From Elusimicrobiota bacterium (lineage in GTDB: Bacteria > Elusimicrobiota > Elusimicrobia > Elusimicrobiales > UBA9959): a stretch of DNA of 49,071 bases. The position numbers were made by a program, and so were the translations under genes. How positions within the stretch are numbered: position 1 is the stretch's first letter; every line of letters begins with the position of its first letter. Under the pieces are notes generated by a model. It ran no database searches, was not told the origin of the DNA, and saw nothing but the letters and a program-made list of their open reading frames with translations. Positions 15,487 to 49,071 of this stretch are shown in pieces. The stretch spans positions 1 through 49,071 of the forward strand of contig JAPLKJ010000219.1 in the NCBI GenBank assembly GCA_026388125.1. Direction: 5' to 3'.

Positions 15487-15528
15487 CAGTTTTGGGTTGG
15501 TATAAAAAAATTAACGGAGGAGAATAAA

Positions 15529-25615: not shown

Positions 25616-25690
25616 TGGTGGGTGATACAGGATTTGAACCTGTGACATCTGTCGTGTGAGGACAGCGCTCTACCGCTGAGCTAATCACCC
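25616..25690 (-). tRNA. tRNA-Val (anticodon CAC), CCA encoded
   Basis: GGGTGATTAGCTCAGCGGTAGAGCGCTGTCCTCACACGACAGATGTCACAGGTTCAAATCCTGTATCACCCACCA; all four stems pair. Confidence 0.97.
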
Positions 25691-25825: not shown

Positions 25826-26899
25826 CTATGGCTGGCATGATAGTTGACCACTATGCGTTGCCGGGGCCGCCGGCGCGCCCAGAACAGGCATCCCCGATTC
25901 GAACGCGGCCATGGCGGCGTTAATATGCGCCTTCGACAGGTGGGCATAGCGTTGCGTCATCTGCGGCGACGCGTGGCCCAACAGTTTTTGCAGGGCGTAC
26001 AGGTCCGCCGTCCTCATATAGAAGTGGCTGGCAAAAGTATGTCGAATATCATGAAACCGGAAATACGCAATGCCGGACTCCGCCTTCAACCGGTCGAACA
26101 GACGCCTGAACGTTATATGCGCTATTTCGAAAACTTTCCCCTCCGGTTTCGGCCTAGTACCTAACATTACTTCCTTCAGGCGCGGCGTGATAGGCACCTC
26201 GCGCGGCTTGCCGGACTTCGATATAAGAATGTAGATGGTGCCATGCTCAAGGTCGACGTTCTTCCAATCCAGCCTTAATATCTCGCCTTGCCGCATGCCC
26301 GTAAAGAGCGCGCAGACGACAACAGGATATAGCTTGCTGTACTCCGGCCCCTGGCACACGAGTAGTAGCCGGTCCATCTCGGCGGAACTTAGGTAACGGA
26401 GCCGGGAGGCGTTATCGGGCTGCTTCTTAATGCGCTTGGCAGGATTTTCCTTCTGAAAGTCGCCCCACTCAATGGCGCGGTTGTAGATGGCCTTTATCAA
26501 TGCCAGGTACCGGTTCGCGGTCGACGGCGTGGTCGAGACCGCTTTCTTGTTGTACCATTCCTGCCATTCTTTCGTCGTTATTTCGTCGGCCCGCCGATGG
26601 CCGAATTCGGGAATCAGGGTACCGGTTCGGTAGCTCCATGAACTATCCCTGTTGAAGCCGACAAGCCGGTAGTAGTTATCCGCCAGTTCTTTAAAAGTGC
26701 AACGCTTAACGGCGGCGATATATTTATTTTCATAAACCTCGCCCTGCACCTTAACTAGTGACCGCTTAGCCAACTTGCGCATTTCTGCGGTATCAGGCCC
26801 GATCTTCTCACGGTGGCGCTTGCCGGCCTGATCATTAAAGACTATCCATACTTCCGCCAATTTATCCGCCCGTTTTCGTATCCAGATTCCGTTTGCCAT
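25826..26899 (-). CDS. Tyrosine recombinase/integrase
   Basis: Catalytic R (TGMRQGEI), K (SKSGK), HxxR (HDIRH), H (LLGH) and Y (QRYAH); start at MANGIW after SD AGGAG/AAGGA (ORF track extends to 26932). Confidence 0.93.
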   Translation of the reverse strand: MANGIWIRKRADKLAEVWIVFNDQAGKRHREKIGPDTAEMRKLAKRSLVKVQGEVYENKYIAAVKRCTFKELADNYYRLVGFNRDSSWSYRTGTLIPEFGHRRADEITTKEWQEWYNKKAVSTTPSTANRYLALIKAIYNRAIEWGDFQKENPAKRIKKQPDNASRLRYLSSAEMDRLLLVCQGPEYSKLYPVVVCALFTGMRQGEILRLDWKNVDLEHGTIYILISKSGKPREVPITPRLKEVMLGTRPKPEGKVFEIAHITFRRLFDRLKAESGIAYFRFHDIRHTFASHFYMRTADLYALQKLLGHASPQMTQRYAHLSKAHINAAMAAFESGMPVLGAPAAPATHSGQLSCQP

Positions 26900-26962
26900 A
26901 AGTTCCTTTTCTCCTTGGACAATAGCGGACATTTACGTCGTCCGTCAAGTCCTGTTTCGCTC

Positions 26963-28193: not shown

Positions 28194-29480
28194 TCAGCTT
28201 TTGGGAAGAGTTACTGGCGGGGTTTCCGGCAAATTAGAGAGGGTCATATCTCCCGTTCCGGGGAAATATTCATCCAGATAATCTGTCCAAAGCTTGTTCG
28301 TCTGTGCAGTGCTTTTCCCTATATAGAAAAGTGTATTCGCGTAGTCTAACTTTTTACCATCCATTTCCATGAGGCCCATTTGCAGGGCGGCTTCCTGAAG
28401 CGCCTTGGATGTGTTGTGACTTTCAGAAGCACGGTATTCCGCTATCTGTCCAGTGGTGAGCTCCGGATATTTCTTCTGGCACTCCAAGAGGGCTTCGTCT
28501 CTGCTTTTACCGCTGGAGCATATCCCTTGTACATCTTCACGCATATTTAAAAAAACCTGTTGCAGCCTGTAAAGCTCATCAGGATTGCCCGGCTCTAACG
28601 CTGCAGGCGCTTCATACCCCGACACGTTGGCTAACGAGATAGCGCCGAAATCGCTGACAACTCCCTTGATAACCTTCAACTTCTCTTCCTGCAAGTATTT
28701 CCCCAGTGAATTCCCCGGCCGGTTCTTTCCGGCAACCAGGCTTTTAAGCTGCTCGTTGTAATAGCTATCACCTTTCGGCCGTTCTCTTTTATAATCAACG
28801 GAAATCTGGGCCAGTCTTTCTTTTGTGATCTTTGCCGTTACCGGGTTACAGATTTTTTCCGCGATCTGCTGCTTTTTTTCATCCGACATTGTGTCTTTTA
28901 TGCCCAGTTTTTCCGGCTGCTGGTTTATACGATCAAGCAAAGCATGTTTTTGCGCTTCCGATTTGTGGAATAACGGATCTGTTGAATTTATCCCGCATTC
29001 TTCCGGTAATTCCGGGGTAGTTCTTGCCCACTTGATTAGGAACGCTTTTTCTTTGTCAACTCCATGCTTGTTTATTGCAATATTTAAGCGCTCTGACAGC
29101 TCTTTTGGGGTTAAGTCAAAAAGATGGATATATCCGGTAGGAATTTTACTGGGTTTTTCATAGAGCAAGATTTTATGTTTTCCTTTCTCCACACGGTTGA
29201 AATATTCGATGGCAGAATTGGCCGAAATCAGGCTAAAAAAACTTTCAAAGAATTTTTCTTCTGGTTTTACCTCCAGGCAGGCCGCAAAAGAACGAAAAAT
29301 CGCAAGATCAGCCGGGATTAGCCCCATCACCCCGGAAACCCACCATTCAAAGGGCCGGGAATCGCCCGTCCAGAGCTTGTTTTTTAGAACGACAATCCGT
29401 TCATGTATTTCCCTATGCAGCACCGGGAAATTTTTCTGATGTTTTTCGGCCCATCGGCGCTTCTTAACTTCGTCTCTCAT
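28194..29480 (-). CDS. Hypothetical protein (428 aa), unknown family
   Basis: Long ORF with SD GAGGA, co-oriented with MTase-Xis and the integrase; no motif recognised. Confidence 0.75.
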   Translation of the reverse strand: MRDEVKKRRWAEKHQKNFPVLHREIHERIVVLKNKLWTGDSRPFEWWVSGVMGLIPADLAIFRSFAACLEVKPEEKFFESFFSLISANSAIEYFNRVEKGKHKILLYEKPSKIPTGYIHLFDLTPKELSERLNIAINKHGVDKEKAFLIKWARTTPELPEECGINSTDPLFHKSEAQKHALLDRINQQPEKLGIKDTMSDEKKQQIAEKICNPVTAKITKERLAQISVDYKRERPKGDSYYNEQLKSLVAGKNRPGNSLGKYLQEEKLKVIKGVVSDFGAISLANVSGYEAPAALEPGNPDELYRLQQVFLNMREDVQGICSSGKSRDEALLECQKKYPELTTGQIAEYRASESHNTSKALQEAALQMGLMEMDGKKLDYANTLFYIGKSTAQTNKLWTDYLDEYFPGTGDMTLSNLPETPPVTLPKS

Positions 29481-30035
29481 AATTTTCCTCTAAACTCCGT
29501 GATAAACCCCGGCTTAAAGGATAAATCTTTTACCGGCGGCCATCAATAAGGATTTTAAAAGCCTTACAGTGGAAAATTTGAGATTTTATTACGTATTATC
29601 CGGGGAATTATTCCCGGGGCGACGAAGATAGAATAATATATCTAAAAAAAGTGGCCTGTTTTGCCCTGAACTTGTTATCTATATACCCCGAAATGTCCAT
29701 TTTTATAAACCGCGAAAGTTTTAACCCTTTTCCAGATATTTTCAATGGAAAGAATTCATCCTTACAAGGAAAATTATTACGCACTTGTCTCCAATGAAAA
29801 TAGCGATATTTTACAGCAAATAATTTTGGGGCTATGGAATGGAACCAGGAAACGAAAATAATGCCGGCTCCGGGCAGAGATTTCCCGATTTTCCCGGGGG
29901 AAAGTTCTTCACTACACGGCCCGGCACAGTCGCCACTCTGCCGGCAAGGCCGCCGTTGGCGGCAAGGCTCGCGCAAACAACTGCGGCCTTGCGGGAGAAA
30001 ATCCTTAAAAGATGTGAAAAAATCTCTAAACTCAA

Positions 30036-30962
30036 TTAGAAAAACCAAGTGCGATTTCTGAAAATAGCGCCAAAAACAATACTCGCTGGGATTAATATGA
30101 ATACGATGGATATTTTTAACCATCGATAATTGGTTCTGTTGTCTCTCATTGCCTTAATGCCGCATGAAAATAATGCAACAGAGATTGCCCAAGCGAAAAA
30201 TATAAATCCAGAATAGGCAAGTAGCCCGATCATGCCAGCACCATTCTGCTGTTGAAGTGAATCCGAAGCTAAGAACGTGTCTTTCCAAAAAGTGTTTTTT
30301 GCAACTATATTCATAGCGGCATAGCTATTGGAAATAGTAAGCCGTGATAAAAATTGTGCAACTGGATTGCATGCAATAATTAATAGCACCCATATTTTCT
30401 TCGAGATTCCTGAAAAATAAAAGAGTTCTTGGTCTTTAGAATTAAAATAAGTGGTCTTTTTTGCGAAGTTAAAGCTGAAGTAAGACGCGCTGAATGTGAG
30501 GAGTATTTGTAAAATGATCAACGTCCACTCACCAGAATTTATTCCTAAGACGAAAGGGTTTGCCTCTGCAAATGTCTGTCCCTTTATTATGCGAGCAGCC
30601 ACAAGTAATAGAGATTCAATGACACGGTAATATATCAACAAAAATCCAAATAAGACCCCCCAAAAAACACGTAGCTCTCTTAGATAATAACCGAGTATTC
30701 CTACCGAACATGTAATAACTAATGAGTCGAACAGTAAGGATATAAGGTTGAAAACCCAGAATTGAGTTAACGTTAAATAAATTGGGACACCATTGGTGGT
30801 TCGATATATCAAAGACTCTTGGAATTCAGGTATCGCCCTGCTAAAAAGCCCTAAATAGTTTAGCGCCAGAAAACTGGAGAATAGTAAAATAAATATTGTA
30901 TTTTTGCTTCTAGTTCTGGTTTTCATATAATTCCAGAAACTTTTAGTTGTAGTTCTGTTCAC
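30036..30962 (-). CDS. Hypothetical polytopic membrane protein
   Basis: AT-rich ORF with about 7 hydrophobic segments; start may instead be ATG 30926. Confidence 0.7.
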   Translation of the reverse strand: MNRTTTKSFWNYMKTRTRSKNTIFILLFSSFLALNYLGLFSRAIPEFQESLIYRTTNGVPIYLTLTQFWVFNLISLLFDSLVITCSVGILGYYLRELRVFWGVLFGFLLIYYRVIESLLLVAARIIKGQTFAEANPFVLGINSGEWTLIILQILLTFSASYFSFNFAKKTTYFNSKDQELFYFSGISKKIWVLLIIACNPVAQFLSRLTISNSYAAMNIVAKNTFWKDTFLASDSLQQQNGAGMIGLLAYSGFIFFAWAISVALFSCGIKAMRDNRTNYRWLKISIVFILIPASIVFGAIFRNRTWFF

Positions 30963-31422
30963 GATTAATTAAAAAGAGTCCTAAACCTCGAATCCCTAAA
31001 GTTGCAATAAGTAGGAGTATGAGATTCCCGGATGTGCCCCACATTCCATGAAAAAGTGTCGCGAGAATGGCGAGCGGTACGACTCCAACTCCTAAGAAGC
31101 AAAGACCCAAAAAAACCGCGAGTATTCCCCAGATGTTGTACGTAATTAGTAAACCCCAGGCCCACAATGTTAATCCAAAAATATATGAGCAGAGATAAAA
31201 CCCAAGTCCAGAGAAACTTCTGGTTTTTCTGAACATAGAAAGAGGTAGAAGTATTAGTATGCATACTTCAGTAGTGAGGGTTGCTAAAACAAGTAAAATT
31301 GGATAAAGCTTAGCAGAAAGCCATGCAGCCCCCGAAAGAAATAATAAGCCTAATATCACAGATGCCGCTAGGACAAATATCCCCGCCAAAAATATTCCTA
31401 TTGATTTTAGTGAGTTGTTCAT
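30943..31422 (-). CDS. Hypothetical membrane protein
   Basis: Hydrophobic ORF from MNNSLK; overlaps the downstream membrane gene. Confidence 0.7.
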   Translation of the reverse strand: MNNSLKSIGIFLAGIFVLAASVILGLLFLSGAAWLSAKLYPILLVLATLTTEVCILILLPLSMFRKTRSFSGLGFYLCSYIFGLTLWAWGLLITYNIWGILAVFLGLCFLGVGVVPLAILATLFHGMWGTSGNLILLLIATLGIRGLGLFLINREQNYN

Positions 31423-31664
31423 GCGCAACCAAACCTTACATTTTCTAACATTTATTCGCCCAGTTAGCAAGATTAATTGACAAGAAAAGGCAACTGCGGC
31501 CATGCGCCCCGCCACTATTATAACTTGCAACCGTGGTGCCAGCCCACCAAGCGGGTTGGTTTGTAGGGTACCAAGCCGTATCCCCGTGCTCCACTGTACA
31601 GGCCGCGCCAAACCGTGGCCTTGCGGGAAATGCTGTATAATAATCAGGTTAGGAAACTCAAATA

Positions 31665-38307: not shown

Positions 38308-38529
38308 AATTCAACCTCCATAACCGGCAAAATATATAAAAAGTATAGCAGACGAACCCGACATAGGCGTGACGGGTTGTAAAATGAAGGCGGCGTCGGG
38401 ATCCTTTCGGGCGGCGGCTTGCTGTTTTTCCAACCCGGTCCACACGTCAGCCCATGCGATTGGAGTTACCCACCCATTTGCTAAACATTGGCTACATACT
38501 TTATGTTATCATTGGGTAGTGGAGCCTTT

Positions 38530-39381
38530 ATGAGCAAGTGTAGCAACTGCAATGCCCCGCTATCACCAAGCTTAAGGCACTGCCCTGCATGTAGGGCAGA
38601 TGCTGGTGCACCTAATGTCAGAGAATGTGGAAGCACGGAAGAGCGGCTTGCATTAGAAGAACGCTTTGAAGTTTCAAAGAAAAGTGCATTTTCACGTGGG
38701 TGCGGAACAGAATTTTCAGATTTCATTTTACTGACAGAAAAAAGTTCTTGCGTGATTGTAAACATGCCAGCAGCTCAAGCACGTAATTTAGTGACAGATG
38801 TTAAGAATATATATGTAAATTATGAAAAATTAGTAGGAAGCGGATTACGTCTACCAGCATTAATTCCGAATGACAAAAAACGTAGTGGAATGGCTGGATT
38901 CTTCTTTGGCACTTATGATGACCAAATAATTTATGGCTTTCTCGGTTTTCCAAGCTCAAAGCTTCCATCTTATGGTGGAATTGCTTGCCAGTTAAAATCA
39001 ATTTCAATCAGAAATCGTGTAAGTTTTCTTGAGGAGAACTCCTATAGTTTCTTCAATCAGCATAAAGATGCCATCCTAAAGAGTGACTTCCCAAAAGGCT
39101 ATAGGGCAGTTTGGGGGAACCGTCATAAATTAGTAATGGCTAAACTAGGGGATAGAATTCAGAAAGGCTCTACAGATACCGACCATGAGATTCTTATTTC
39201 TGTTTCGGGGGGTATGAATAGAGAACAAGACGAATTTATTGAAGCGCACATTTTTGAAACTTTCAATGTTCACGCAATTGAAGCGATGAAAGATGCTAAC
39301 ACATCAAAGCATGATAAGGGTGCAAAAATAGACGCAAAAATAGCTCTTGAGCAATTTGCAAAGATTCAGACTACACCATGA
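38530..39381 (+). CDS. Zn-ribbon protein with DUF3626/ADP-ribosyltransferase-like motifs (tentative)
   Basis: CxxC-x10-CxxC N-terminus; IIYGFL...SYGGIACQL...RVSFLEENS...FIEAHI; SD GGAG before ATG 38530. Confidence 0.7.
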   Translation: MSKCSNCNAPLSPSLRHCPACRADAGAPNVRECGSTEERLALEERFEVSKKSAFSRGCGTEFSDFILLTEKSSCVIVNMPAAQARNLVTDVKNIYVNYEKLVGSGLRLPALIPNDKKRSGMAGFFFGTYDDQIIYGFLGFPSSKLPSYGGIACQLKSISIRNRVSFLEENSYSFFNQHKDAILKSDFPKGYRAVWGNRHKLVMAKLGDRIQKGSTDTDHEILISVSGGMNREQDEFIEAHIFETFNVHAIEAMKDANTSKHDKGAKIDAKIALEQFAKIQTTP

Positions 39382-41282
39382 CGGTTCAAAAAGCTTTCTG
39401 GTCTACTACTGCGGGAGTTCTCGTTGGGGAGAGAACCGGTGAGGCTCCTCCTAAGGTGCATTCTATTGGAATACAGGATTTCTCCGACCAAGAAGCAGGG
39501 TATTACCTTTCTTCCATAACTGATTGGGAGGAAGTGGAATTCAACGACATCACATCTTTGTTAGGCACCCTTACAACTCGGTACTGGGTAGACAGAGCAC
39601 ATGCTTTAGCTGTAGCTTTATTAAGTGGTCTCTCCGAAGTGTTGGAGAAAGAAGTCCTAGAAGAACTCGAGCAACTCATTCAGACACGAATTAAAGCCAA
39701 GAGTCTGCTATCACTCCTTTTAGTCGCCCCTCTTGCTTCGCCTGCAAAATCGAAGTCCCTTGCAGTGACTTCACTAAAAACAAATCTCCCTGCTATAGCT
39801 GCAGTTTGGGACAAACTTAGTGAATTACAACCCTTAATTAATCGCTTTTCATCATTATGGCTAACTATTCCCGAAGAGAGTTTTTTACAATATGCACGGC
39901 ACGATTTATGGGTTAGGGTGGCCACGGAAGAAGTACTTCCGGACTTGCTTGAATCCCCCAATAGTAATAGTTTCCGTTCCCAATGGAATACTTTATTATT
40001 TAAGAGCAAGCAATCGCCTGACCAGATAAAATCTTTAAATACAGTGGGGATAACTTTAACTGGTAAATTATTCCCGCATGGCGCGAGTGTCACTCCAATG
40101 TCGATTGCGGACGAATTACCAGAAGAACACATACATAAAAAAAAGTTTACTCACTATATTGCCGCAGAGGAAAAGGACAGTGCTCTTAAACAAGTTGCTG
40201 CGATTGCAAAAACACTAGCTGAAGGTAAAGATGATATTGCCCATAAGTATCTGCGGGAACTTGTGAAGCATCAGGTAGCAGGTGGGGATACAGAATTCGT
40301 TCTTAAATCGCTATGTAATATCGCAAAGAAATGTGCAGACACGTTTAGAATTGATTTCGAGCATGACTGTTTGTTAAAAGCATTGTCTCTTTCTCCATCA
40401 GATTCCTGGACTTTAATTCAATGGGGAGATCATTTGAAAAGAACTGGGGATTACGATCTCGCACTAGAGGCGATGGAGAAAGCATGGCAGATGAGCGGCA
40501 ACATAATTGCCCAAACAATCATAGCTGATATATGGGCTATGCAGGGAAAGCGCGAGAAGGCTCTTTCAATATACAAAAAGATTGAGAATTGTGAAAATAA
40601 TGAGACTGTCAGAACCGCTATCGGTGACATTTTACGAAGAGATGGTCATCTTGAAAATGCTGAGAAAGAATATGATTATGTAATATCCAAATGGGAGTCT
40701 CATCGCGCTTATGCGGGCAAAGCTGAAATAGCTAAAAATAAGTTGCTATTCCAAAAATCTTTATCTATCTATGAGAAACTTCTAGAAAACCCAGATACCG
40801 ACGAGCATTCTCGCGCTATTTACAGATCGGCTCAATGTCGCTTATTTAAACTGATGGGCCGGTTTACTGAAGCCTATAAGGGGTGTGAGTTACTATTGCT
40901 TAAGTTACAACGATATGATGAAGCAAAATGCTTATTAACTGAGAGAATAGATTCTGTAATGGAATCGAGCGACAACCCCGCTCTTCTACGATTAGGGGCG
41001 ACATTGGCATTTTTAAGTGCACGAGAGGATTCAGAGGCAGAAAGAATAATTAAAGAGTTCCCTAAAAGTTCAAATCAGTATGTAGAATACCTTGCTTCTA
41101 TTATGAGGTTGCATCTTGCCGTTTTAAAATCGGATGAAGTATCTATACAGTGGTTGACTAAGGAATTGTTGCAGTACCCTGAAATGTCCACCAAAACGGA
41201 TGTAGCTTTAGCCGATCTTAAGAAACACGATTTTAAATCTATAATAGAGCTCGAGATCGAACTCTGCCTTATGGCTGCATAA
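39378..41282 (+). CDS. Tetratricopeptide-repeat protein
   Basis: TPR-like units (WGDHLKRTGDYDLALEAMEKA; IGDILRRDGHLENAEKEYD); ATGA overlap with the upstream gene. Confidence 0.8.
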   Translation: MTVQKAFWSTTAGVLVGERTGEAPPKVHSIGIQDFSDQEAGYYLSSITDWEEVEFNDITSLLGTLTTRYWVDRAHALAVALLSGLSEVLEKEVLEELEQLIQTRIKAKSLLSLLLVAPLASPAKSKSLAVTSLKTNLPAIAAVWDKLSELQPLINRFSSLWLTIPEESFLQYARHDLWVRVATEEVLPDLLESPNSNSFRSQWNTLLFKSKQSPDQIKSLNTVGITLTGKLFPHGASVTPMSIADELPEEHIHKKKFTHYIAAEEKDSALKQVAAIAKTLAEGKDDIAHKYLRELVKHQVAGGDTEFVLKSLCNIAKKCADTFRIDFEHDCLLKALSLSPSDSWTLIQWGDHLKRTGDYDLALEAMEKAWQMSGNIIAQTIIADIWAMQGKREKALSIYKKIENCENNETVRTAIGDILRRDGHLENAEKEYDYVISKWESHRAYAGKAEIAKNKLLFQKSLSIYEKLLENPDTDEHSRAIYRSAQCRLFKLMGRFTEAYKGCELLLLKLQRYDEAKCLLTERIDSVMESSDNPALLRLGATLAFLSAREDSEAERIIKEFPKSSNQYVEYLASIMRLHLAVLKSDEVSIQWLTKELLQYPEMSTKTDVALADLKKHDFKSIIELEIELCLMAA

Positions 41283-41293
41283 CGGAAATAATG

Positions 41294-41321
41294 AAAAAAA
41301 AGGGACAGCGAGGCTGTCCTT
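41294..41321 (-). terminator. Rho-independent terminator of the ABC/MTase operon
   Basis: Minus strand GGACAGC-CTC-GCTGTCC followed by C and a T8 tract. Confidence 0.75.
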
Positions 41322-41363
41322 AGGAAAGAGGCCCGGTGCATGCACGCGCCCTCTATTGCTATC

Positions 41364-42113
41364 TCAACACTGAGAGTCAAACTCCAAAAGCATTGACGCC
41401 TCTGGTAGTGCGATTAAATCTTGCACTGACATTGCGAGCCTCTCGGAACAGGGAACTTTGATAGCTACAGATTTGCATAAAATGCCGTTATCCACCAAAT
41501 AGATCCTAGTGGCAATCCGCAACACATCAACAATTTGATGAGCAGTGGCGATAATGGATAAACCATCACCTTCGACTCGTCTATGCAATTCTGACATTAT
41601 TTTAGCTTTTGTGATTGCATCAATCCCGGTAAAAGATTCATCTAAAAGAAGCAAATCAGGGTTAAATGATAGCGCCTTACACAATTCCACACGTTGCCTC
41701 ATGCCGAGAGAGAGTTGTCGGGGAAGAAGATCCTTTATCTTATAAAGGCCACATATTAAACATAGCTTTTCAAATTCATTTACATTTGCAGCGTGGCGTC
41801 TAAGAGCCGCTTCTGTAACAACATTATCCGTTACTGATAACCATGGGAGTAGTGTGCTATCATGCATTATATACCCAAGACATCTCACTGAGGAGCGAAT
41901 GGAATCAGAAAGGTTGCTTCGCAACACCCCACTCATAAGATTGAGGAATGTCGTCTTTCCGCAACCACTTCGGCCATGGAGAAAAATAATTTCACCTGGA
42001 AAAATTCGAAAGTCTCGTAAAATAAATTCAGAAGCATCCGCTATGCCATCATAGGAAAACTGTGATTTACTAATTTCAATCAAAGGGGACTTAGAATAAC
42101 GATCTGATATCAT
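41364..42113 (-). CDS. ABC transporter ATP-binding subunit (NitT/TauT type)
   Basis: Walker A GRSGCGKT, LLPWLSVTDNV, signature LSLGMRQR, LLLLDE, H-loop. Confidence 0.88.
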   Translation of the reverse strand: MISDRYSKSPLIEISKSQFSYDGIADASEFILRDFRIFPGEIIFLHGRSGCGKTTFLNLMSGVLRSNLSDSIRSSVRCLGYIMHDSTLLPWLSVTDNVVTEAALRRHAANVNEFEKLCLICGLYKIKDLLPRQLSLGMRQRVELCKALSFNPDLLLLDESFTGIDAITKAKIMSELHRRVEGDGLSIIATAHQIVDVLRIATRIYLVDNGILCKSVAIKVPCSERLAMSVQDLIALPEASMLLEFDSQC

Positions 42114-43588
42114 TATTTATTTGTAACCGCTAAAAGATTTGAAGATGTTTTACTGGGATCGTGTCTGAAGAAAAAAAGGACATCATCACAGGGCAGCGAA
42201 TCTATACCATGTACTTTGCGGACAAGATTAGCGAAGCGGTTTAGGATTTGAATATCATTGCATGGGTCATCATATAAATAATGGAGAAAGTCGGTAAGGT
42301 CATGCAAATATGCAATTGGGTATGTTTGTAGCACTTCACAATCCGGTTGTAGCAAATTTTGCATAGATTTACTACAGTCAACTGACACTAATTGGGCTTG
42401 GTCGATTACCATCTTCAGGAAGGTATCAATCCATATATGACTACGATTATCCGCAGTCAGTGAACGTGATTTAATGAATGAAATCGCAACAAATATCGAC
42501 TTTGGGCCATTACCTCTAAACACCACCAAAGCATTTGGCTTAGTATTCTGGATAACACGAATTATCTCGTGGACGGTTTTTTCCTCATATAGTACGTGAG
42601 AAAAATAGAGCAAATCAGCCTTTTTTGCTATGGTTAGCAAATCGGTCTCTTTGCCATTAATAAACCTCCATGCATTAGTAGTGTTCCGCGCATTGAATTC
42701 TTTCTCCCATCTTGAATCTTTTTCATAGCAGTAAACTTCTTTAGGGCTGATTTTCATCCAGGAAAGGAGTTGCGCTAATCGTTCTCCATCGCCACACCCA
42801 AAGTCCAAAACACAATCCATCGATCCTGTGATCGACGGAAGATTTGGTTGACTCAATTGTGCGATGTGTGTTTTGAAGCGTTTATAAATACTAGCGTAAT
42901 TCTCATCTTTCACTAAACTGTGAAATAGGCGTACAACTAAATAAAATAAAACACTCATTCCGACAGCGAGGTCTTTGGTATTTATATGAGATTCGTTGAA
43001 ATCTGAATTAAACCCCGGGTATCTTAGGAATATAATAAATATGATTATGGCAACAAATTCTATAAGCACCCATAACGTTGTTTCTGCTTTGTTCTTTTCA
43101 GGATTTTTTCCCTCACCCCAATCTCTAATAAGCCATAGAAGAAATAAGGCAATAAAGGTTCCATAAGACGCAGTTCGGAACATTTCAGAAGACCTTGGAA
43201 AGGCTAGGGATAAAGTGTATAACCCCTGGGCACCTAAAAGTAAAGTTGGAATAACAAAATGTTGCGGGAATAACCCTTCCATAGGTTGGGAGAACACTAG
43301 GATATTGAATACAATATATAGGTACAAGGCATGAGTTAGAGCCTTAAAGAGTACCCATACCTGCATGGTCAAGGGCGTGAATCCATTCGCCATATTTAAA
43401 GGAAATTCTGCTTCATAAATCAAAACAGTCAGAAGCGACATTCCAATAACTATGTATGTGAATAGCTTTAAATAGTATGCCGACCTCGTAGAGAAAGGTT
43501 TATGCTTAGAAGTGTCTTCAAGAACTGAATCTTGAATGGCAATGAACAAATCTCGAATTGTGGTACTGTTTAATGTAAAGTTAGCCAT
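42113..43588 (-). CDS. Multi-TM protein with C-terminal class I SAM-dependent methyltransferase domain
   Basis: About 6 hydrophobic segments, then VLDFGCGDG, CYEKD and LYFSHVLY; TAATG coupling to the ATPase gene. Confidence 0.78.
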   Translation of the reverse strand: MANFTLNSTTIRDLFIAIQDSVLEDTSKHKPFSTRSAYYLKLFTYIVIGMSLLTVLIYEAEFPLNMANGFTPLTMQVWVLFKALTHALYLYIVFNILVFSQPMEGLFPQHFVIPTLLLGAQGLYTLSLAFPRSSEMFRTASYGTFIALFLLWLIRDWGEGKNPEKNKAETTLWVLIEFVAIIIFIIFLRYPGFNSDFNESHINTKDLAVGMSVLFYLVVRLFHSLVKDENYASIYKRFKTHIAQLSQPNLPSITGSMDCVLDFGCGDGERLAQLLSWMKISPKEVYCYEKDSRWEKEFNARNTTNAWRFINGKETDLLTIAKKADLLYFSHVLYEEKTVHEIIRVIQNTKPNALVVFRGNGPKSIFVAISFIKSRSLTADNRSHIWIDTFLKMVIDQAQLVSVDCSKSMQNLLQPDCEVLQTYPIAYLHDLTDFLHYLYDDPCNDIQILNRFANLVRKVHGIDSLPCDDVLFFFRHDPSKTSSNLLAVTNK

Positions 43589-43691
43589 ATTTAACTTCTT
43601 TTTTAATTAAATAAAATTAATTCAATGAGAAGTGTTTTCAGTCAATACAATTCATGAATTGGCGATGACATATTGATTTTACTGGCAATTA

Positions 43692-44672
43692 CTATTTATA
43701 TAATAAAGCAGCCTGCTGCCTAATCGACTCTGAAATTTCGTCACCAAGCCACATGTCAACCCGGTCTGGGGTTATTGGCATAATGGTGCGTAATTGTGCA
43801 ACTCGCTTAATAGCTGCTGTTATTTTAGTCGCATCCAATGTGGGCGATGCTTTTTTTAGTGCGTCCACTGCGCCTGATAAATCCTGGCTGCCTTTGACAT
43901 ATCCGTCTAATGTGGCTTGAGCTAATTTGTTTACGTCATCAACGGTTAATTTAGCGGCACTAAGGCTTTTCTGACCTGCCGAGACGAGTACAAGCCCATA
44001 ACTTTCAACCCCTAGATTTTCAAAATTTAATTCCTTAAATTTTGTCCCATCAATACTAAGGTCAACAGCATGGTTGGTTGTATAGGCACAAAAAGCATCT
44101 ATGTCCCCAGTCTTAAACGGGATTTGCCCACCATACCCAATTGGGATTTCAGTGAAGGAATTCAAGGGAATCATTTTCTTTTTCAGTAGATAAATAAATT
44201 GTGTATAGACAACCGATTGTGGATTAACGCCAATTCGTTTGCCTTTTATATTGTCCAAACCTTCAATATTGCTGGAAGGTTGAGTAATTAAAGTTGCTAA
44301 GTTGACAGGGATTAGAGGGATTGCTTTTGAAAAAATTCCCCCCTTTGCGAGTCGTTGTAAAATATCGCCAGAAGTAGTTGTTCCAAACAATGCTGCGCCT
44401 GTAGCAACTTGAGCTGCCACAAGGGGAGCACCATTTCCTGTAATAATTTTCACATCGTAACCAGCAGCAGCATATAACCCATGCTCCTTCGCATAGAATA
44501 TTCCATAGTATTCTGCCGATGGCAACCAATCGATGGTAATTTCAATCGTTCGGAGCTTAGATGACGCAGTTGAGGACCCACTCTTCCCACATGACGCCAG
44601 CCCAAAAGCGATTGCGATACACAAGACAACCACAATAGAAACAGGGCGAATGACTTGTTTTAATATTTGCAT
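43692..44672 (-). CDS. ABC substrate-binding lipoprotein, NMT1/THI5-like
   Basis: Lipobox LASC; DWLPSAEYYGIFYAKEHGLYAAAGYDVKI; IKGKRIGV. Confidence 0.85.
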   Translation of the reverse strand: MQILKQVIRPVSIVVVLCIAIAFGLASCGKSGSSTASSKLRTIEITIDWLPSAEYYGIFYAKEHGLYAAAGYDVKIITGNGAPLVAAQVATGAALFGTTTSGDILQRLAKGGIFSKAIPLIPVNLATLITQPSSNIEGLDNIKGKRIGVNPQSVVYTQFIYLLKKKMIPLNSFTEIPIGYGGQIPFKTGDIDAFCAYTTNHAVDLSIDGTKFKELNFENLGVESYGLVLVSAGQKSLSAAKLTVDDVNKLAQATLDGYVKGSQDLSGAVDALKKASPTLDATKITAAIKRVAQLRTIMPITPDRVDMWLGDEISESIRQQAALLYK

Positions 44673-44686
44673 AATTTGCCTCCAAA

Positions 44687-45361
44687 TTAATATCCACGTT
44701 TTTGAATTAATTTCTCTTGGATATAACTTAAGCCGACGTAAACCGTGACTCCTTGAACGATTAATAGACTTACTGCTATATAAATCACATCCATGTCGAG
44801 AGAAGATTGCGCCACAAGTAATAATCTACCTATGCCACGATCAGGTTGTATGAATTCCGCAACGACTGCGCCCAAAACAGCTAAAGTGAACCCGATTTTG
44901 GCAGCTGATACAATAAGTGGAAGAGCATGAGGCATCACCACATAAACTACTTCGTCAAAAAAAGTGGGGTTTGCAATTGCAATAACAGCTTGGAGTGATT
45001 TTGGCAATGTGCGAGTAGCTGAGGCGCACGATGCGTAAATTGGGAAAAATGCTATTAGAAAAGCAATTAGAACTTTAATATGAAAACCAACTCCTAGCGC
45101 GACAATAATTACTGGTGTTAGGGCTTGTAGCGGAAATGATTGGGAGAGTGCAACAATAGGCCCAAAAAATCTTTCAATATGCCTATAGCGGATTCCAATA
45201 CCCGCCAACAAAATTGCTGCCACCAAAGCTATCACAGACGCCACAGCGGCAACAGAGAACGTCGCCCACCATTGCTCGAGTATATAAGGGCCATTGGCTT
45301 TTAAGACTCGTGCAATGCCGCCTGGGTTCGGCAATAATAATGCCCATTTCATTGAATCCAT
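44687..45361 (-). CDS. ABC transporter permease (NitT/TauT type)
   Basis: LLPNP, QSFPLQALTP, AFFPI, MPHALP, GAVVAEF...GIGRLL; the first TM helix appears to be missing. Confidence 0.85.
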   Translation of the reverse strand: MDSMKWALLLPNPGGIARVLKANGPYILEQWWATFSVAAVASVIALVAAILLAGIGIRYRHIERFFGPIVALSQSFPLQALTPVIIVALGVGFHIKVLIAFLIAFFPIYASCASATRTLPKSLQAVIAIANPTFFDEVVYVVMPHALPLIVSAAKIGFTLAVLGAVVAEFIQPDRGIGRLLLVAQSSLDMDVIYIAVSLLIVQGVTVYVGLSYIQEKLIQKRGY

Positions 45362-45565
45362 TTTTACCTTAACCCGAGAGCCAATAAACTAATTTAATTA
45401 ATGTTACTAAAAATATATTGGAAAGCGAAATGCTATATCCATTATGCATGTTTTACGCCGATTTTTTTTGTTATCAGAGCGCACGGTAATTTCCTGGCAA
45501 TATTGATTCACGATAATCATAATAGATTTTAAGAGTTTTGAAACAGCCTCACGTCCCATATCTCA

Positions 45566-46726
45566 CTATTTATTAGCATTCATATGCTTTTCACATGAAA
45601 AAGACAAATCCAGTAGGAATGCAAGCTCAGACGAGTAGAGCCTATTCAGATTGCCTTTCATAGCCCTCACAAATAATGAACCCCAATTATATGAGTCGTC
45701 GTTCGCAAGGTGCAGGGCATATGCCATGCGTGCATACGCTTGTTCAGAGTGCACGTTTTGCCTTTTCAGGGACTTAAGGTATAGTTGGCTGAGGTCATCT
45801 GTCGTTGGGCTCAAAAACCCTTTCATTGTTGCAAGACACTTAACTTGAAGACGGTGGGAATAGCGAGGCAGGAGCGACGCCAAGTCGATATACATAGATA
45901 CCAGATTCTCCTCTGCGAGCAATTTATCGGGGATTCCCCAAGTATGTACGTTCCATTCTGCTTCGAGATATTTAAATGTCGTTAACATCGAGAATTTGGC
46001 AAGGTTCAGTGCTTTTTGGGGAACATTTGTAATTGATCCGCTGATGACCGACCCAAGGAGTTTTGCCGCATATACACTTGCCCAAAGATCTGGCTCGCCT
46101 CGTTTTTCACTCGTCTGCCACCATCCTCCAGCGGTGTGTTGCCAGCCATTATTACCATCAAGCATCAAGTCAACGACTGCCCTTGTAATTAGATTCGTAG
46201 GGTCCTCGTCTGCGAGCATATGCGCGGCCGCCATGGTGTGACGATAATTCCATTTCATCTCATGTGAGGTAGGTGAGGAATCTGGAGCACTCGTGAACAT
46301 TGGGATTCGGTCCTCGCTGAAGAGGCCCCTCACCCCTGCCCTAGCGCGAGCTATCGATATTGGGACAAGACCATGCTTGTGCAGTATGATTGCCGGCCAG
46401 TAGGTAAGATACATCCTTGGCTTTAGGTCCAAAGTCTCTCTTGAACCTTTAGTCTGCCATTTCCCCGAATCTACAGCATTGCGTGATTTGCCGTACTCTC
46501 CCCGGTGTTGTCCAAACCAAGACTGGCCGCGAAGAAGATATCTCACCAGTCGTTTCTGGAGAGCCGTTGTGTCCGCGGAAAGGGGGCCTGCATCTCTTTT
46601 CCATGAAGAAGCGAGAAAACAGTAACGGGTTTCTAGGAGGACATGGAGGTGCCCACTTTGGTAGATGGTAACTAGCAAACCCCACAATGCTGAGGTAATT
46701 AGCCCCACGATAATAGTCTCAATCAT
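45566..46726 (-). CDS. N-terminally anchored alpha/alpha-barrel protein (prenyltransferase/squalene-cyclase repeat-like)
   Basis: N-terminal TM; QW-like motifs YLLRGQ...GEYG and WQHTAGGWW; PDLWASVYA; SD GGAGAGG. Confidence 0.65.
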   Translation of the reverse strand: MIETIIVGLITSALWGLLVTIYQSGHLHVLLETRYCFLASSWKRDAGPLSADTTALQKRLVRYLLRGQSWFGQHRGEYGKSRNAVDSGKWQTKGSRETLDLKPRMYLTYWPAIILHKHGLVPISIARARAGVRGLFSEDRIPMFTSAPDSSPTSHEMKWNYRHTMAAAHMLADEDPTNLITRAVVDLMLDGNNGWQHTAGGWWQTSEKRGEPDLWASVYAAKLLGSVISGSITNVPQKALNLAKFSMLTTFKYLEAEWNVHTWGIPDKLLAEENLVSMYIDLASLLPRYSHRLQVKCLATMKGFLSPTTDDLSQLYLKSLKRQNVHSEQAYARMAYALHLANDDSYNWGSLFVRAMKGNLNRLYSSELAFLLDLSFSCEKHMNANK

Positions 46727-46828
46727 ATCCTCTCCCGCTAAACTATCGTTAGACTGGTCAGTCTATTTTGGCCGATGAAATCTATAAATAGCAAGTTTTT
46801 TGATCTGACTCCCTAGTGATTTCGATTA

Positions 46829-47032
46829 TTAGCGATATTTACTGACAGCAGTTCTGTATATAGCTTTAGTTTCGCCCTCATATTGCTGTAAGTTTTTTCA
46901 TGGCAACCCGGACTATCTCAATCCAAGCACATCAATTATTCTTTCCCGTGAAATTACGCCTGTGTCTAAAAATAATTCTTCTAATCTAAAATGATCTATC
47001 TCAACATCCTGCAGCTTAGAGTCGGGCCTTGG
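46829..47032 (-). pseudogene. Degenerate 3' gene fragment
   Basis: Reads PRPDSKLQDVEIDHFRLEELFLDTGVISRERIIDVLGLR*SGLP*KNLQQYEGETKAIYRTAVSKYR*; protein-like with two in-frame stops and no start. Confidence 0.35.
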
Positions 47033-47265
47033 GGACGCTGTTTACTATCTTCCTATTCCCCCAGAAAGTGACAATTAGAAATCAGGAAACAGTGACCTTC
47101 CCCCAAAAAACAGACCACCCGCTGGTTTGGAATTTCCGAGGCTTTCCCAACCCACCAAGCCCGACGATACCAATATAGCTTTCAACAAACATAATTTTCC
47201 TCTAATTGTAGAATGGCCCTCATAATAATTGGCATTAAACAGTAACGTTCGCCCTCCCAGGCCTC

Positions 47266-47294
47266 AGCGGAATAGAGCTAGCCTCTATTCCGCT
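47266..47294. other. 12-bp perfect hairpin downstream of the SEC-C gene
   Basis: AGCGGAATAGAG-ctagc-CTCTATTCCGCT. Confidence 0.6.
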
Positions 47295-47311
47295 CATAAC
47301 TTTTTTCATGT

Positions 47312-49071
47312 CTAGCAAATGTCCATGCAACATTTTTTATATTTTCTGCCGCTGCCGCATGGACACTTGTCGTTTCTTCCAATAGTTGTAGTTGCTCTCT
47401 CCCGAGACACCCTAGCTTTCTTAAGTGATTCTGCCAATTCTTTTACTTTTTCCAACTCAAAGGAAGAAAGCGAATTAAGTTTCAAAAACTTGAAACATAC
47501 ATCAGTGATACTAGAGTTTTTATCAAAAAACAATTCAATGAGTATTCTTTCCGAATCATTGCGGATGATCATCGCTGCTTGCGAATGTTCTATTGCGAAC
47601 CTCTCATTTCTATCGAATACCCCTTCTTGCCAACAATAGATACTAATCTTTTCTCCTACAAATGTTGAGATAGATTTAGGACGCATATCGCGCGCCTGCT
47701 CTATCAATAACTCATCTATACCTGAAGCTATCTTTTCTCGCCAATAGCTGTCGCAATTTAGAAGAGCTCGAACGACCCGCGAGCGTCCAGGCCGTGTTCC
47801 TTTTACCAAGATGTCGTTAATTTCCCTGATTCTTTTTGGAGTCTTTTGTTTTGGAAGATGAACATCAGGAATGCCAGAAGCTTTTCTTGAATAATACCTA
47901 TCAATGTCCGCAGCGTACCCGACCCATTGCATCGGTTCATTTTCATTGAATTGTTTGGCATACTCGGTATAAAGATTGTGTTTTAAATATAACCCAAGAT
48001 GATATAACTCATCATCCAATTTAATCTGGAGAGATTTACTCGCCCGCAATCTTTCTTCCACAAAATGGAGGAACACCAATGGGTTCTCGAAAATATCCGA
48101 GTATACCGTTAGATCCTCAACCGATATTGACCAGACCGGAGAAGCACCGACATCCACTCCAATATCTTTAAGATGTGTTACTTGCGCAGCATATTCAGTA
48201 AACGGGTCTAAACTGACAGCCAAAATCACATTCTGCCGATAATCTCTATATGATACTCGCTTAATTTCACTATGAGAGGAATCGAATAGTGCCACTTCTT
48301 CCGCAGATGCAAGATACTTCAAAAATCTCTCCCCTTGCTTTGCCGGAGTAAGGACTAAATCCCTTAAAGATCGTATATACATGGGGAAGTCTGTGGCAGG
48401 AGAAATTAACTTAAAGGCACCTGCTTTTACCTCAACGACGAACAAGTAGTCATCATAAGTCAATACTGCATCAACTTCTCCCCACTGTCGGGGTGCCCCG
48501 CCTTCGGGCTGTATTGGGTAAAACACATTCCGATAGACTTGTGCGCCAGGAAGCAATCGCAGCAATAGATCACACGGGATCTTTTCTGAAATATCTTTCT
48601 GTTTATTGTTCCATGTCTCTTGATATCCCGGTTTATTTTTTAAAATCACTCTCTGCAAGGCACGGTAAAGGTGGTCGTACATGCCATGCAAATCAAAACA
48701 GTAATAATGATTATTTATCTTTAAAAATGGCCGCTTGAATACTGGCCAAACTCTCAATGGCCACCCACGAAACTTACCTTCAGAGAAAAACTCCAAATCT
48801 TCACCTACTCCCCAAGAAAGTGCGTCTAGGACATTTGAAGAAAAACCACTTGTTTTTTGTAAATCAAATAGGTCCTCCTGGAACAACCGTCCAATAATAC
48901 TTCCCTGCCAGTCTCCCCAACCTCTATCCACAACAATTTCATGCATTAGCCTGGGAATTTCATCTTCTGTCAAAATAGGATGTGTTTTTTGTTTTTCCTC
49001 CAGCTCTTGTAGCGTAGCCTGCCTGAATTCATTAAATTCTGCAAAAGCATCTGAAATCCCGATGGTTAGAG
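47312..49071 (-). CDS. Large protein with PD-(D/E)xK/NERD-like nuclease motif and C-terminal SEC-C motif (5' end outside window)
   Basis: GEVDAVLTYDDYLFVVEVKAG; GRNDKCPCGSGRKYKKCC; the frame stays open upstream of 48973 to the window edge (LTIGISDAFAEFNEFRQ...). Confidence 0.85.
   Translation of the reverse strand, partial: LTIGISDAFAEFNEFRQATLQELEEKQKTHPILTEDEIPRLMHEIVVDRGWGDWQGSIIGRLFQEDLFDLQKTSGFSSNVLDALSWGVGEDLEFFSEGKFRGWPLRVWPVFKRPFLKINNHYYCFDLHGMYDHLYRALQRVILKNKPGYQETWNNKQKDISEKIPCDLLLRLLPGAQVYRNVFYPIQPEGGAPRQWGEVDAVLTYDDYLFVVEVKAGAFKLISPATDFPMYIRSLRDLVLTPAKQGERFLKYLASAEEVALFDSSHSEIKRVSYRDYRQNVILAVSLDPFTEYAAQVTHLKDIGVDVGASPVWSISVEDLTVYSDIFENPLVFLHFVEERLRASKSLQIKLDDELYHLGLYLKHNLYTEYAKQFNENEPMQWVGYAADIDRYYSRKASGIPDVHLPKQKTPKRIREINDILVKGTRPGRSRVVRALLNCDSYWREKIASGIDELLIEQARDMRPKSISTFVGEKISIYCWQEGVFDRNERFAIEHSQAAMIIRNDSERILIELFFDKNSSITDVCFKFLKLNSLSSFELEKVKELAESLKKARVSRERATTTIGRNDKCPCGSGRKYKKCCMDIC

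Follow-up and report, generated by a model that had tools for sequence, protein, structure and literature searches.

Why should the genes of a small-molecule importer sit together with those of a membrane methyltransferase and an alpha/alpha-barrel protein among defence genes? The question is raised by five genes at positions 41364-46726 of contig JAPLKJ010000219.1, from the genome of an Elusimicrobiota bacterium (GenBank assembly GCA_026388125.1, 3.47 Mb in 311 contigs); the entire 49,071-bp contig was analysed and is called the window throughout. In order, the genes encode a toroid protein, a permease, a binding lipoprotein, a methyltransferase and an ATPase. An earlier note, made from the sequence alone, had proposed a dedicated system that makes or modifies a small molecule, imports it and methylates it at the membrane. 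We read the five genes as one import-bind-methylate module at the inner membrane, drawn from the conflict (defence-island) gene pool, a reading we hold tentatively and at a little less than an even chance. The module matches no described system and is a candidate new conflict-linked module.

All five open reading frames (ORFs) are intact and lie on the minus strand. The toroid protein (45566-46726, 386 aa) belongs to a family without a name and has a transmembrane (TM) helix at about residues 2-24, with a toroid, predicted to be cytoplasmic, at about residues 50-386. After a 204-bp gap (45362-45565), possibly holding an internal promoter, come the permease of an ABC importer (44687-45361, 224 aa; BPD_transp_1, PF00528, 56 bits), a binding lipoprotein of the NMT1/THI5 (SsuA-like) fold (43692-44672, 326 aa; PF09084, 86 bits), a TM-fused class I S-adenosylmethionine (SAM) methyltransferase (42113-43588, 491 aa; Methyltransf_23, 26.4 bits) and an ABC ATPase (41364-42113, 249 aa; ABC_tran, 73 bits). 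A terminator-like hairpin with a T-run, seven pairs of which five are G-C, ends the module at 41319-41303. The co-oriented, AT-rich gene order and terminator described in the earlier note hold to exact coordinates, at a GC content of 38-42%, as does the TAATG overlap, whose base 42113 belongs both to the stop codon of the methyltransferase gene and to the start codon of the ATPase gene. Its transporter operon stands as regards gene content and order, while a single transcript is doubtful: a second gap of 103 bp separates the binding protein gene from the methyltransferase gene and, given these two gaps, the five genes may be expressed as two or three transcripts. Within the larger gap, a weak sigma-70-like site at 45441-45412 has 9 of 12 matches; such sites are no commoner in the region than in shuffled sequence. 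An Rfam scan of 41000-47400 returned no riboswitch or other element at E ≤1, a chance lncRNA row aside.

The AlphaFold2 (AF2) model of the toroid protein, built on a 46-row alignment (pLDDT 92.7, pTM 0.89), has an N-terminal helix at residues 2-24 followed by an all-helical domain. This agrees with the alpha/alpha-barrel claimed earlier and, as modelled, the first gene product is an (alpha/alpha)6 toroid. A structural search other than Foldseek retrieved (alpha/alpha)6 toroids at Z scores of 15-18 with no clear winner, including cellobiose 2-epimerase (17.9), ent-CPP synthase (17.3), squalene-hopene cyclase (17.2) and drimenol synthase (17.1), together with several glycosidases and the TED domains of C4 and C3 (C3d) at Z ~15. 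Foldseek matches were at E 1e-3 or weaker, with drimenyl-diphosphate/drimenol synthases in the top rows and squalene-hopene cyclases also represented (1e-3 to 7e-3), and the protein-atlas neighbours were terpene-cyclase, prenyltransferase and TED-like clusters at scores of 0.84-0.91.

An exhaustive HMMER search placed the toroid in a family with 100 cluster representatives, of which 30 reach E ≤1e-30. The window protein has no Pfam, NCBIfam or PADLOC match, none of the 46 aligned full-length members matches any Pfam family (E ≤0.01), and the 24 close relatives which bear names are all annotated as “hypothetical protein”. R162, H163 and R333 are invariant in the family alignment, and K102, G200-G201-W202, D213, Y219, W258, W263 and Y336 nearly so. 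The repeat, of the type WQ..DGGW......DLWAS.YA..L, presumably resembles QW-type repeats. The earlier suggestion of a barrel that synthesises the molecule, in the manner of a prenyltransferase or cyclase, nevertheless finds no support: membership of the class II terpene cyclases or prenyltransferases fails for lack of Pfam SQHop_cyclase/Prenyltrans repeats (0/46), of a DxDD motif and of an Asp/Cys/His zinc site. A complement-type TED was rejected likewise, with no thioester Cys-Gln and no conserved Cys in either family alignment; the toroid profile reached bacterial alpha-2-macroglobulin (A2M) at an E value of 0.087 only. The AGE-type catalytic His pair is also absent, the toroid having one invariant His only. 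One metagenome locus (L010, 845-2317) has an interrupted toroid gene, in which a ~1.47-kb insertion separates residues 44-263 from residues 271-376 and carries a 432-aa ORF without a Pfam or PADLOC family.

Twenty-one of the 100 representatives are fragments; the other 79 comprise 46 with a predicted N-terminal TM helix, 19 with a short N-terminus (below the hydropathy threshold for a TM helix) and 14 with a long N-terminal extension. In the TM class, Lys and Arg average 2.96 per 15 residues after the helix and 0.15 before it, and are more frequent after than before in 46 of 47 proteins; because positive charge follows the helix, the toroid is predicted to lie on the cytoplasmic side of the membrane. 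Pfam was run on 20 members that are long or otherwise unexplained. Seven carry TIR-type fusions (P0021, P0045, P0059, P0087, P0094, P0100 and P0103), including a CAP12/Pycsar TIR (PF10137) in P0045 and a SEFIR/TIR domain in P0059. Other fusions are to PNP_UDP_1 (P0046, P0063), a cytidine deaminase (P0056), a guanylate cyclase (P0089) and a sigma-54 AAA+ domain (P0086); P0071 has a sub-threshold HNH match, and six of the 20 have no domain match. P0066 joins a BPD_transp_1 permease to an ABC_tran ATPase and a C-terminal toroid in one chain of 837 aa, whose ATPase part shares 30% identity with that of the window. Each of the fusions, P0066 included, is known from one cluster representative. A word-indexed search found no longer fused forms, which is weak evidence given the search type.

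The core pocket (K102, R162, H163, W202, Y219 and R333) is retained across the TM class (35 sequences) and in 16 fused forms, those with ABC, TIR and PNP domains included. As the pocket stays constant across such dissimilar partners, the alignments point to a toroid which serves one conserved small ligand or chemistry, and not variable phage proteins. The basic and aromatic make-up of the pocket suggests an anionic ligand. Domain-swapping around the same pocket is more in keeping with a partner that binds or processes a ligand than with an enzyme of biosynthesis.

Part of the evidence for our reading is the recurrence of the combination. Pattern scans yielded four genome loci and 11 metagenome loci with a toroid gene, and ten distinct loci have at least 3 kb of flanking sequence: the window and L002, L003, L004, L005, L009, L011, L014, L015 and L016. 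L006 equals L002 over 9.6 kb, and L007, L008, L010, L012 and L013 were left out as too short. ABC importer genes, of NitT/TauT, Liv, ECF or unclassified type, lie within 5 kb of the toroid gene at seven of the ten loci. With 51 ABC_tran matches in the 3.47 Mb of the host genome, at most ~16% of 11-kb windows would hold one; against this base rate (~0.16), the binomial p for seven of ten is ~2e-4, a rough figure as the loci are few and related. The earlier note had named in advance, as the finding on which its proposal would fall, an absence of this co-occurrence elsewhere or a match to a described uptake pathway. Instead, toroid genes were found with importers and methyltransferases at other loci, and no described uptake pathway was matched.

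The composition differs from locus to locus. The window has a NitT/TauT-type importer, and L003 has the toroid, permease and NMT1 substrate-binding protein (SBP) in the same order before the contig ends; its fourth gene (272 aa, open 3' end) shows no similarity to the membrane domain of the methyltransferase. At L009, genes for an NMT1 SBP, a permease, an 832-aa protein, a 257-aa methyltransferase, an ATPase and the toroid all overlap or abut. A Liv-type operon at L011 (SBP, 4-TM-fused methyltransferase, two permeases and two ATPases) converges on the toroid gene and overlaps it. Another Liv-type operon converges on the toroid gene at L002, where two genes, one for a TIR protein of 452 aa and one for a radical-SAM protein of 262 aa that is viperin-like (pVip profile, 1e-21), lie between the ATPases and the SBP (13977-16125, minus strand), in place of a methyltransferase. 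L016 has two polytopic membrane proteins, a methyltransferase and a double nucleotide-binding-domain (NBD) ATPase, divergent from the toroid, and upstream of the toroid at L015 lies an ECF S-component with an ATPase-like fragment, the latter from tblastn only (8.5e-8) and with broken frames. A SAM methyltransferase is thus embedded in an ABC operon at four of the ten loci (window, L009, L011 and L016), and its gene overlaps the start of the ATPase gene by 1 nt in the window, 23 nt at L009 and 4 nt at L016. The ABC-linked toroids group together in a single clade of 27 rows (SH-aLRT 88) in a quick maximum-likelihood tree, with P0066 in another clade; nearest to the window toroid are P0005 (52% identity) and L002 (49%), which has another transporter family and other embedded enzymes. 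As a separate observation, the 832-aa protein of L009 (5967-8465, plus strand), between permease and methyltransferase, has no Pfam or PADLOC family; it lies near diadenylate-cyclase (DAC) proteins in the protein atlas at 0.88, below the 0.9 bar, and neither Pfam nor a sequence search of the PDB confirmed the lead.

The importer parts themselves are recognisable. The permease has about five hydropathy peaks and an EAA-type loop, as read from the sequence; its similarity to SsuC, TauC and NtrB is weak (SsuC 47.6 bits against a cut-off of 347, TauC 45.9 against 342), and it is 25-28% identical to the permeases of L003 and L009. The binding protein scores 86 bits against the NMT1 cut-off of 20.5 and reads as having a signal peptide with the lipobox L-A-S-C, reaching 35.7 bits for the SsuA subfamily TIGR01728 (cut-off 163.5) and weak matches only to solved structures (4nmy, 1.5e-5; ThiY, 3ix1, 1.4e-3 over 70 residues). 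For the ATPase, the best NCBIfam match is the nitrate-type NtrCD subfamily, below cut-off. Its Walker A (GRSGCGKT), Walker B (LLLLDE) and H-loop His are present, while a His replaces the Q-loop Gln and the signature is LSLGM, compared with LSGGM in the canonical ATPase of L009. At family level only, then, the transporter appears NitT/TauT-like. SsuABC or TauABC sulfonate/taurine uptake was rejected, the equivalog cut-offs being missed widely and no oxygenase (SsuD, TauD) lying among the neighbours, and so was ThiXYZ/ThiY thiamine-pyrimidine uptake, in view of the weak ThiY match and the lack of a thiamine pyrophosphate (TPP) riboswitch. The pyrimidine-like ligand guessed earlier from the NMT1/THI5 fold is not a safe guess either, since the transporter type varies among loci. 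Complex prediction for the window ATPase and toroid gave a score of 0.00, which is evidence neither way.

The embedded methyltransferase combines a membrane domain (about residues 30-241), with four hydropathy peaks or about six predicted helices before residue 241, and a class I SAM domain (about 255-480) whose Methyltransf_23 score falls just below the 27-bit cut-off. Three relatives were found in 5.8 billion clusters, at 45%, 28% and 23% identity. Motif I (LDFGCGDG) and SHVLY are invariant among the four sequences and YEKD is conserved, while invariant polar residues of the membrane domain include H86, E159, E177 and K205-D206. In the AF2 model the membrane part has a pLDDT below 50 and the catalytic part 70-88. 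Foldseek returned 475 matches to the catalytic domain at E ≤1e-3; those listed include BioC and the farnesyl diphosphate (FPP), trans-aconitate and histamine methyltransferases (E 4e-8 to 1e-5), as well as cyclopropane and mycolic-acid synthases, and all of them are small-molecule, lipid or unassigned methyltransferases, none a DNA methyltransferase. The modelled domain thus resembles the small-molecule/lipid type rather than the DNA type, in line with the membrane methyltransferase acting on a small molecule that had been proposed. A family search of genome contigs gave no locus, and in viral contigs it gave two generic motif matches (L017, L018).

The first ~25 kb of the window have a GC content of 58-72%, mostly 61-65%, and the remainder 36-54%, with the module at ~40% compared with 62% for the host genome. 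The switch coincides with a tRNA-Val(cac) gene (25616-25690) and a tyrosine integrase gene (25826-26932, minus strand), which stand at the start of the low-GC island bearing the module. The toroid gene is single-copy in the host genome, and no toroid was found in 36 same-genus and 24 same-order genomes, two marginal matches of ~1e-4 aside. On both counts, the island beside the tRNA and integrase and the absence from kin genomes, the module is accessory and horizontally acquired. The two marginal profile matches (G030:C54:6926-7219 and G054:C3:34695-34997, loci L021 and L020) lie within ORFs of ~1,900 aa, which may encode alpha-2-macroglobulin-like proteins with a TED domain. Further afield, the toroid was present in none of 400 further genomes from the phylum of L004, a viral contig collection held no relatives, and a fold search of BFVD returned nothing at E ≤1e-3. 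Near-identical module DNA occurs in freshwater metagenome runs from three studies, one of them possibly the source.

The island also carries a BsuBI/PstI nuclease with an Eco57I-type methyltransferase, a NERD-UvrD helicase (PADLOC C3a187, 7e-73), an N6/N4 DNA methyltransferase, an HNH protein, four family-less ORFs, a zinc-ribbon/TPR gene pair and a SEC-C-motif protein. Judged by this content, the low-GC part of the window reads as a defence island, and the defence-gene setting of the earlier note is upheld by these restriction and defence genes. Defence or mobile contexts were seen at six of the ten loci (window, L004, L005, L009, L014 and L016). L004 has an integrase with IS91 and DDE transposases, and the toroid gene of L005 lies directly downstream of SIR2 (9e-74) and HerA (1.6e-130). 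At L009 there is a CD-NTase on one side and DUF6602, a second CD-NTase, a Cap2 E1-E2 protein (3e-134) and a JAB protein on the other, with an integrase. L014 has an integrase with ParA and ParB beyond it, and L016 a terminase with Phd and HicB antitoxin-family genes.

Several other features of the island were recorded. The SEC-C-motif gene (47312-48973, minus strand) neighbours the window toroid gene, and a SEC-C protein also adjoins the toroid gene of L005 (5977-6795, just upstream of SIR2-HerA); the similarity of the two is confined to a 19-residue motif. On the other side, two genes that overlap by 4 nt on the plus strand (38488-41282) converge on the module, the products being a zinc-ribbon protein of 297 aa and a TPR protein of 634 aa; the pair had no PADLOC match and no homologues at other toroid loci, and forms a separate two-gene unit. 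Within the TPR gene (39378-41282), contigs of two metagenome runs, X1 (a possible source) and X3, have 156 extra letters at 40888-40889, where a further run, X2, has loose ends. Either the TPR gene differs in length by 52 codons, in frame, or the window assembly has collapsed a repeat there. The four consecutive family-less ORFs (428, 171, 308 and 222 aa; 28194-31611, minus strand), which lie between the DNA methyltransferase and HNH genes, have no Pfam or PADLOC family. At 29949-29992 (43 bp), contigs break at both ends in all four runs and on one side run into GC-rich sequence unlike the window, indicating either a repeat or an alternative junction.

We propose the following mechanism for the module. 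The NitT/TauT-type importer, dependent on its SBP, would bring in a small polar compound, and the toroid, tethered by its single TM helix, would stand on the cytoplasmic face beside the transporter. Its pocket (K102, R162-H163, W202, Y219, R333 and Y336) would bind, and perhaps process, a conserved anionic ligand, whether the compound that is taken up or something derived from it. At the same site, a small molecule or a lipid would be methylated by the methyltransferase, which is co-translated with the ATPase. We favour a functional unit of toroid, importer and methyltransferase from a conflict-associated accessory pool, because the combination recurs, the methyltransferase is embedded in ABC operons and P0066 fuses the toroid to a transporter. 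Import followed by methylation of a small molecule is inferred, as are ligand binding by the toroid, its action with the transporter at this locus, the kind of ligand, the target of methylation and any anti-phage effect. More speculatively, and in our judgement with about one chance in five, the toroid may define a novel kind of immune receptor in prokaryotes, which recognises a conserved anionic small molecule and to which interchangeable outputs are attached (TIR, PNP nucleosidase, deaminase, cyclase, transcription activator, ABC importer). The importer-coupled form would then read, at the membrane, a compound taken up from outside, for instance a nucleobase-like metabolite or a signal of danger or of kin, once an enzyme has edited it, with the methyltransferase as editor here and radical-SAM/TIR enzymes elsewhere.

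Certain findings weigh against the module as we read it. Its weakest point is that the ABC family varies by locus (NitT/TauT, Liv, ECF, and PAAT-like in P0066) while the toroid pocket is constant, which sits awkwardly with an imported substrate as the toroid ligand. The toroid occurs without a transporter at L004, L005 and L014. No defence neighbourhood is recognisable at L002, L003 or L011, and L015 is too short for a judgement. Among the methyltransferases of the four loci no orthology is detectable: BLASTP found nothing at 1e-2, and hhalign of the window family against those of L009, L011 and L016 aligned the SAM-motif region only, or nothing. The PADLOC matches are limited to generic methyltransferase and ATPase motifs, and the unusual Q-loop and signature suggest that the window copy of the ATPase might be impaired. 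Finally, ten informative loci stand for 100 family representatives, and kin among them are not independent.

Among other explanations is ordinary nutrient salvage carried as island cargo, with sulfonate, pyrimidine or a similar compound imported, the toroid a metabolic enzyme of the cytoplasm (isomerase or hydrolase, as in the AGE and YihS toroids), the methyltransferase a tailoring or detoxifying enzyme and no role in conflict. The importer parts are bona fide, with weak SsuA/SsuC/TauC/NtrCD similarity, sugar epimerases and YihS, a sulfoquinovose isomerase, are among the top structural matches (Z 15.9-17.9), L002, L003 and L011 lie amid housekeeping-type genes, and the invariant R-H, K and R would suit an enzyme with an anionic substrate. 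Even so we think salvage unlikely, as there are no equivalog-level matches, riboswitch or catabolic partner genes (SsuD, TauD) and no AGE-type His pair, the same pocket is fused to TIR, CAP12/Pycsar TIR, SEFIR, PNP, deaminase and cyclase modules, six of ten loci are mobile or defence-related, and the ABC family differs between toroids that are 49% identical (window and L002). Those same fusions could instead suggest abortive infection activated by a signal, in which the toroid is a receptor for a nucleotide-derived messenger or infection-induced metabolite and its partners are effectors; in the window, the ATPase and methyltransferase would drain ATP and SAM or perturb the membrane. A variable N-terminal module before a constant toroid does mirror effector-sensor proteins, as in the CAP12/Pycsar TIR (P0045) and PNP_UDP_1 fusions, the L009 module is flanked by two CD-NTase-type cyclases and is convergent with a Cap2/Cap3 pair, and TIR and viperin-like radical-SAM genes replace the methyltransferase at L002. 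However, the window module lacks a signal-producing enzyme, the toroid has no PADLOC match, the DAC lead at L009 was not confirmed, and SBPs and permeases are kept at every ABC-linked locus, which argues for real transport; we rate this explanation as somewhat more doubtful than salvage.

A further explanation is modification of envelope lipids or isoprenoids, by a toroid that is a divergent class II terpene-cyclase- or prenyltransferase-like enzyme with a polyprenyl substrate in the membrane and a methyltransferase that methylates this lipid, which could alter the cell surface and with it, for example, phage adsorption. It would draw on the terpene cyclases and prenyltransferases among the Foldseek and atlas neighbours of the toroid (atlas 0.84-0.88), on the match of the methyltransferase model to FPP methyltransferases and cyclopropane/mycolic-acid synthases, and on two membrane-bound proteins with basic residues that could hold a diphosphate. 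Yet glycosidases and epimerases match the toroid structure at least as well, the cyclase and prenyltransferase families and motifs (DxDD, zinc site) are missing as described above, and SBP-dependent importers and soluble TIR, PNP and deaminase fusions would go unexplained, making this explanation improbable. Chance juxtaposition, with toroid and methyltransferase as unrelated passengers beside or in a decaying transporter operon, is disfavoured as very improbable indeed: the 204-bp and 103-bp gaps, the atypical ATPase motifs and the tiny methyltransferase family could be read this way, whereas the three-part combination recurs at L009, L011 and L016 with other gene orders and ABC families, methyltransferase and ATPase genes overlap at three loci, P0066 is a covalent fusion and the five ORFs are intact.

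If the association is functional, the (alpha/alpha)6 toroid would be a new sensor or ligand-handling domain for bacterial conflict systems, one without a family model, and this would be the first case of complete binding-protein-dependent importers as constant partners of such a domain. If the receptor proposal is true, immunity would be wired to uptake from the environment, for which we know of no described defence system. This raises the questions of which ligand occupies the K/R-H/R pocket, whether TIR, PNP and deaminase toroids respond to it, and whether external uptake feeds an immune or exclusion decision. Even on the ordinary metabolic explanation, an import-and-methylate pathway would be defined and a function given to ~100 “hypothetical protein” clusters.

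How, then, does the module compare with known systems? That it is no named system, as the earlier note had said, agrees with the lack of a specific PADLOC match and of any description of a toroid, ABC importer and methyltransferase system in the literature searched; the supplements of the APE preprint discussed below might list related families. NitT/TauT importers such as SsuABC, TauABC, NrtABCD and ThiXYZ are alike in their NMT1/SsuA-fold SBP, BPD_transp_1 permease and single ATPase. The module differs from them in the TM-fused methyltransferase between SBP and ATPase, the toroid gene upstream, the defence-island location, the atypical Q-loop and signature of the ATPase, and the absence of sulfonate or nitrate enzymes and of a TPP riboswitch. 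Effector-sensor defence proteins include TIR-SAVED/Cap12, PycTIR, PycTM and the TM-type Thoeris ThsA. Like these, the toroid family joins a constant C-terminal domain to swappable N-terminal TIR, TM or nucleosidase modules; unlike them, its constant domain is a toroid and not a SAVED, CARF, cNMP-binding, Macro or STING domain. To our knowledge, the ABC-importer link has no counterpart in the effector-sensor systems of signalling defence. In contrast to CBASS, Pycsar and Thoeris, a signal-producing cyclase or TIR gene is not among the five genes of the window or their flanks and appears only in the L009 and L002 versions.

MADS was considered in view of PADLOC matches of the methyltransferase to mad2 (5.5e-4) and of the ATPase to mad3 (1.8e-19), with a partial mad8 motif match too. 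The matches cover generic SAM-binding and ABC-ATPase motifs only, and the two DNA methyltransferases of the island score better on mad2. MAD3 is described as an OLD-family ATPase acting with a nuclease (abstract of PMC13662399). The module was rejected as a MADS system, there being no nuclease partner and no other mad gene, and its ATPase being a transporter NBD. The toroids of terpenoid cyclases, prenyltransferases and TED proteins share the fold, whereas the toroid described here is a single domain of ~330 aa with another invariant set (K102, R162-H163 and R333). The closest published system is APE (Alpha-Alpha toroid - ParA - Effector), a predicted conflict system in which, according to the preprint, a toroid not characterised before is the proposed sensor, is structurally related to TED while lacking the TED cysteine, and is associated with variable effectors, including TIR (bioRxiv 10.64898/2026.10.19.760177). 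As described there, the toroid of APE occupies the N-terminus, with a long charged helix after it and a ParA NTPase as its partner. The toroid of the window has the permease and SEC-C-motif genes as neighbours, with no ParA beside it; among the toroid loci, ParA and ParB were seen at L014 only, beyond an integrase. In architecture and partners, the family reported here is set apart from APE by a toroid that comes at the C-terminal end, after a TM helix or after TIR, PNP, deaminase or ABC modules, and by its partnership with ABC importers and methyltransferases.

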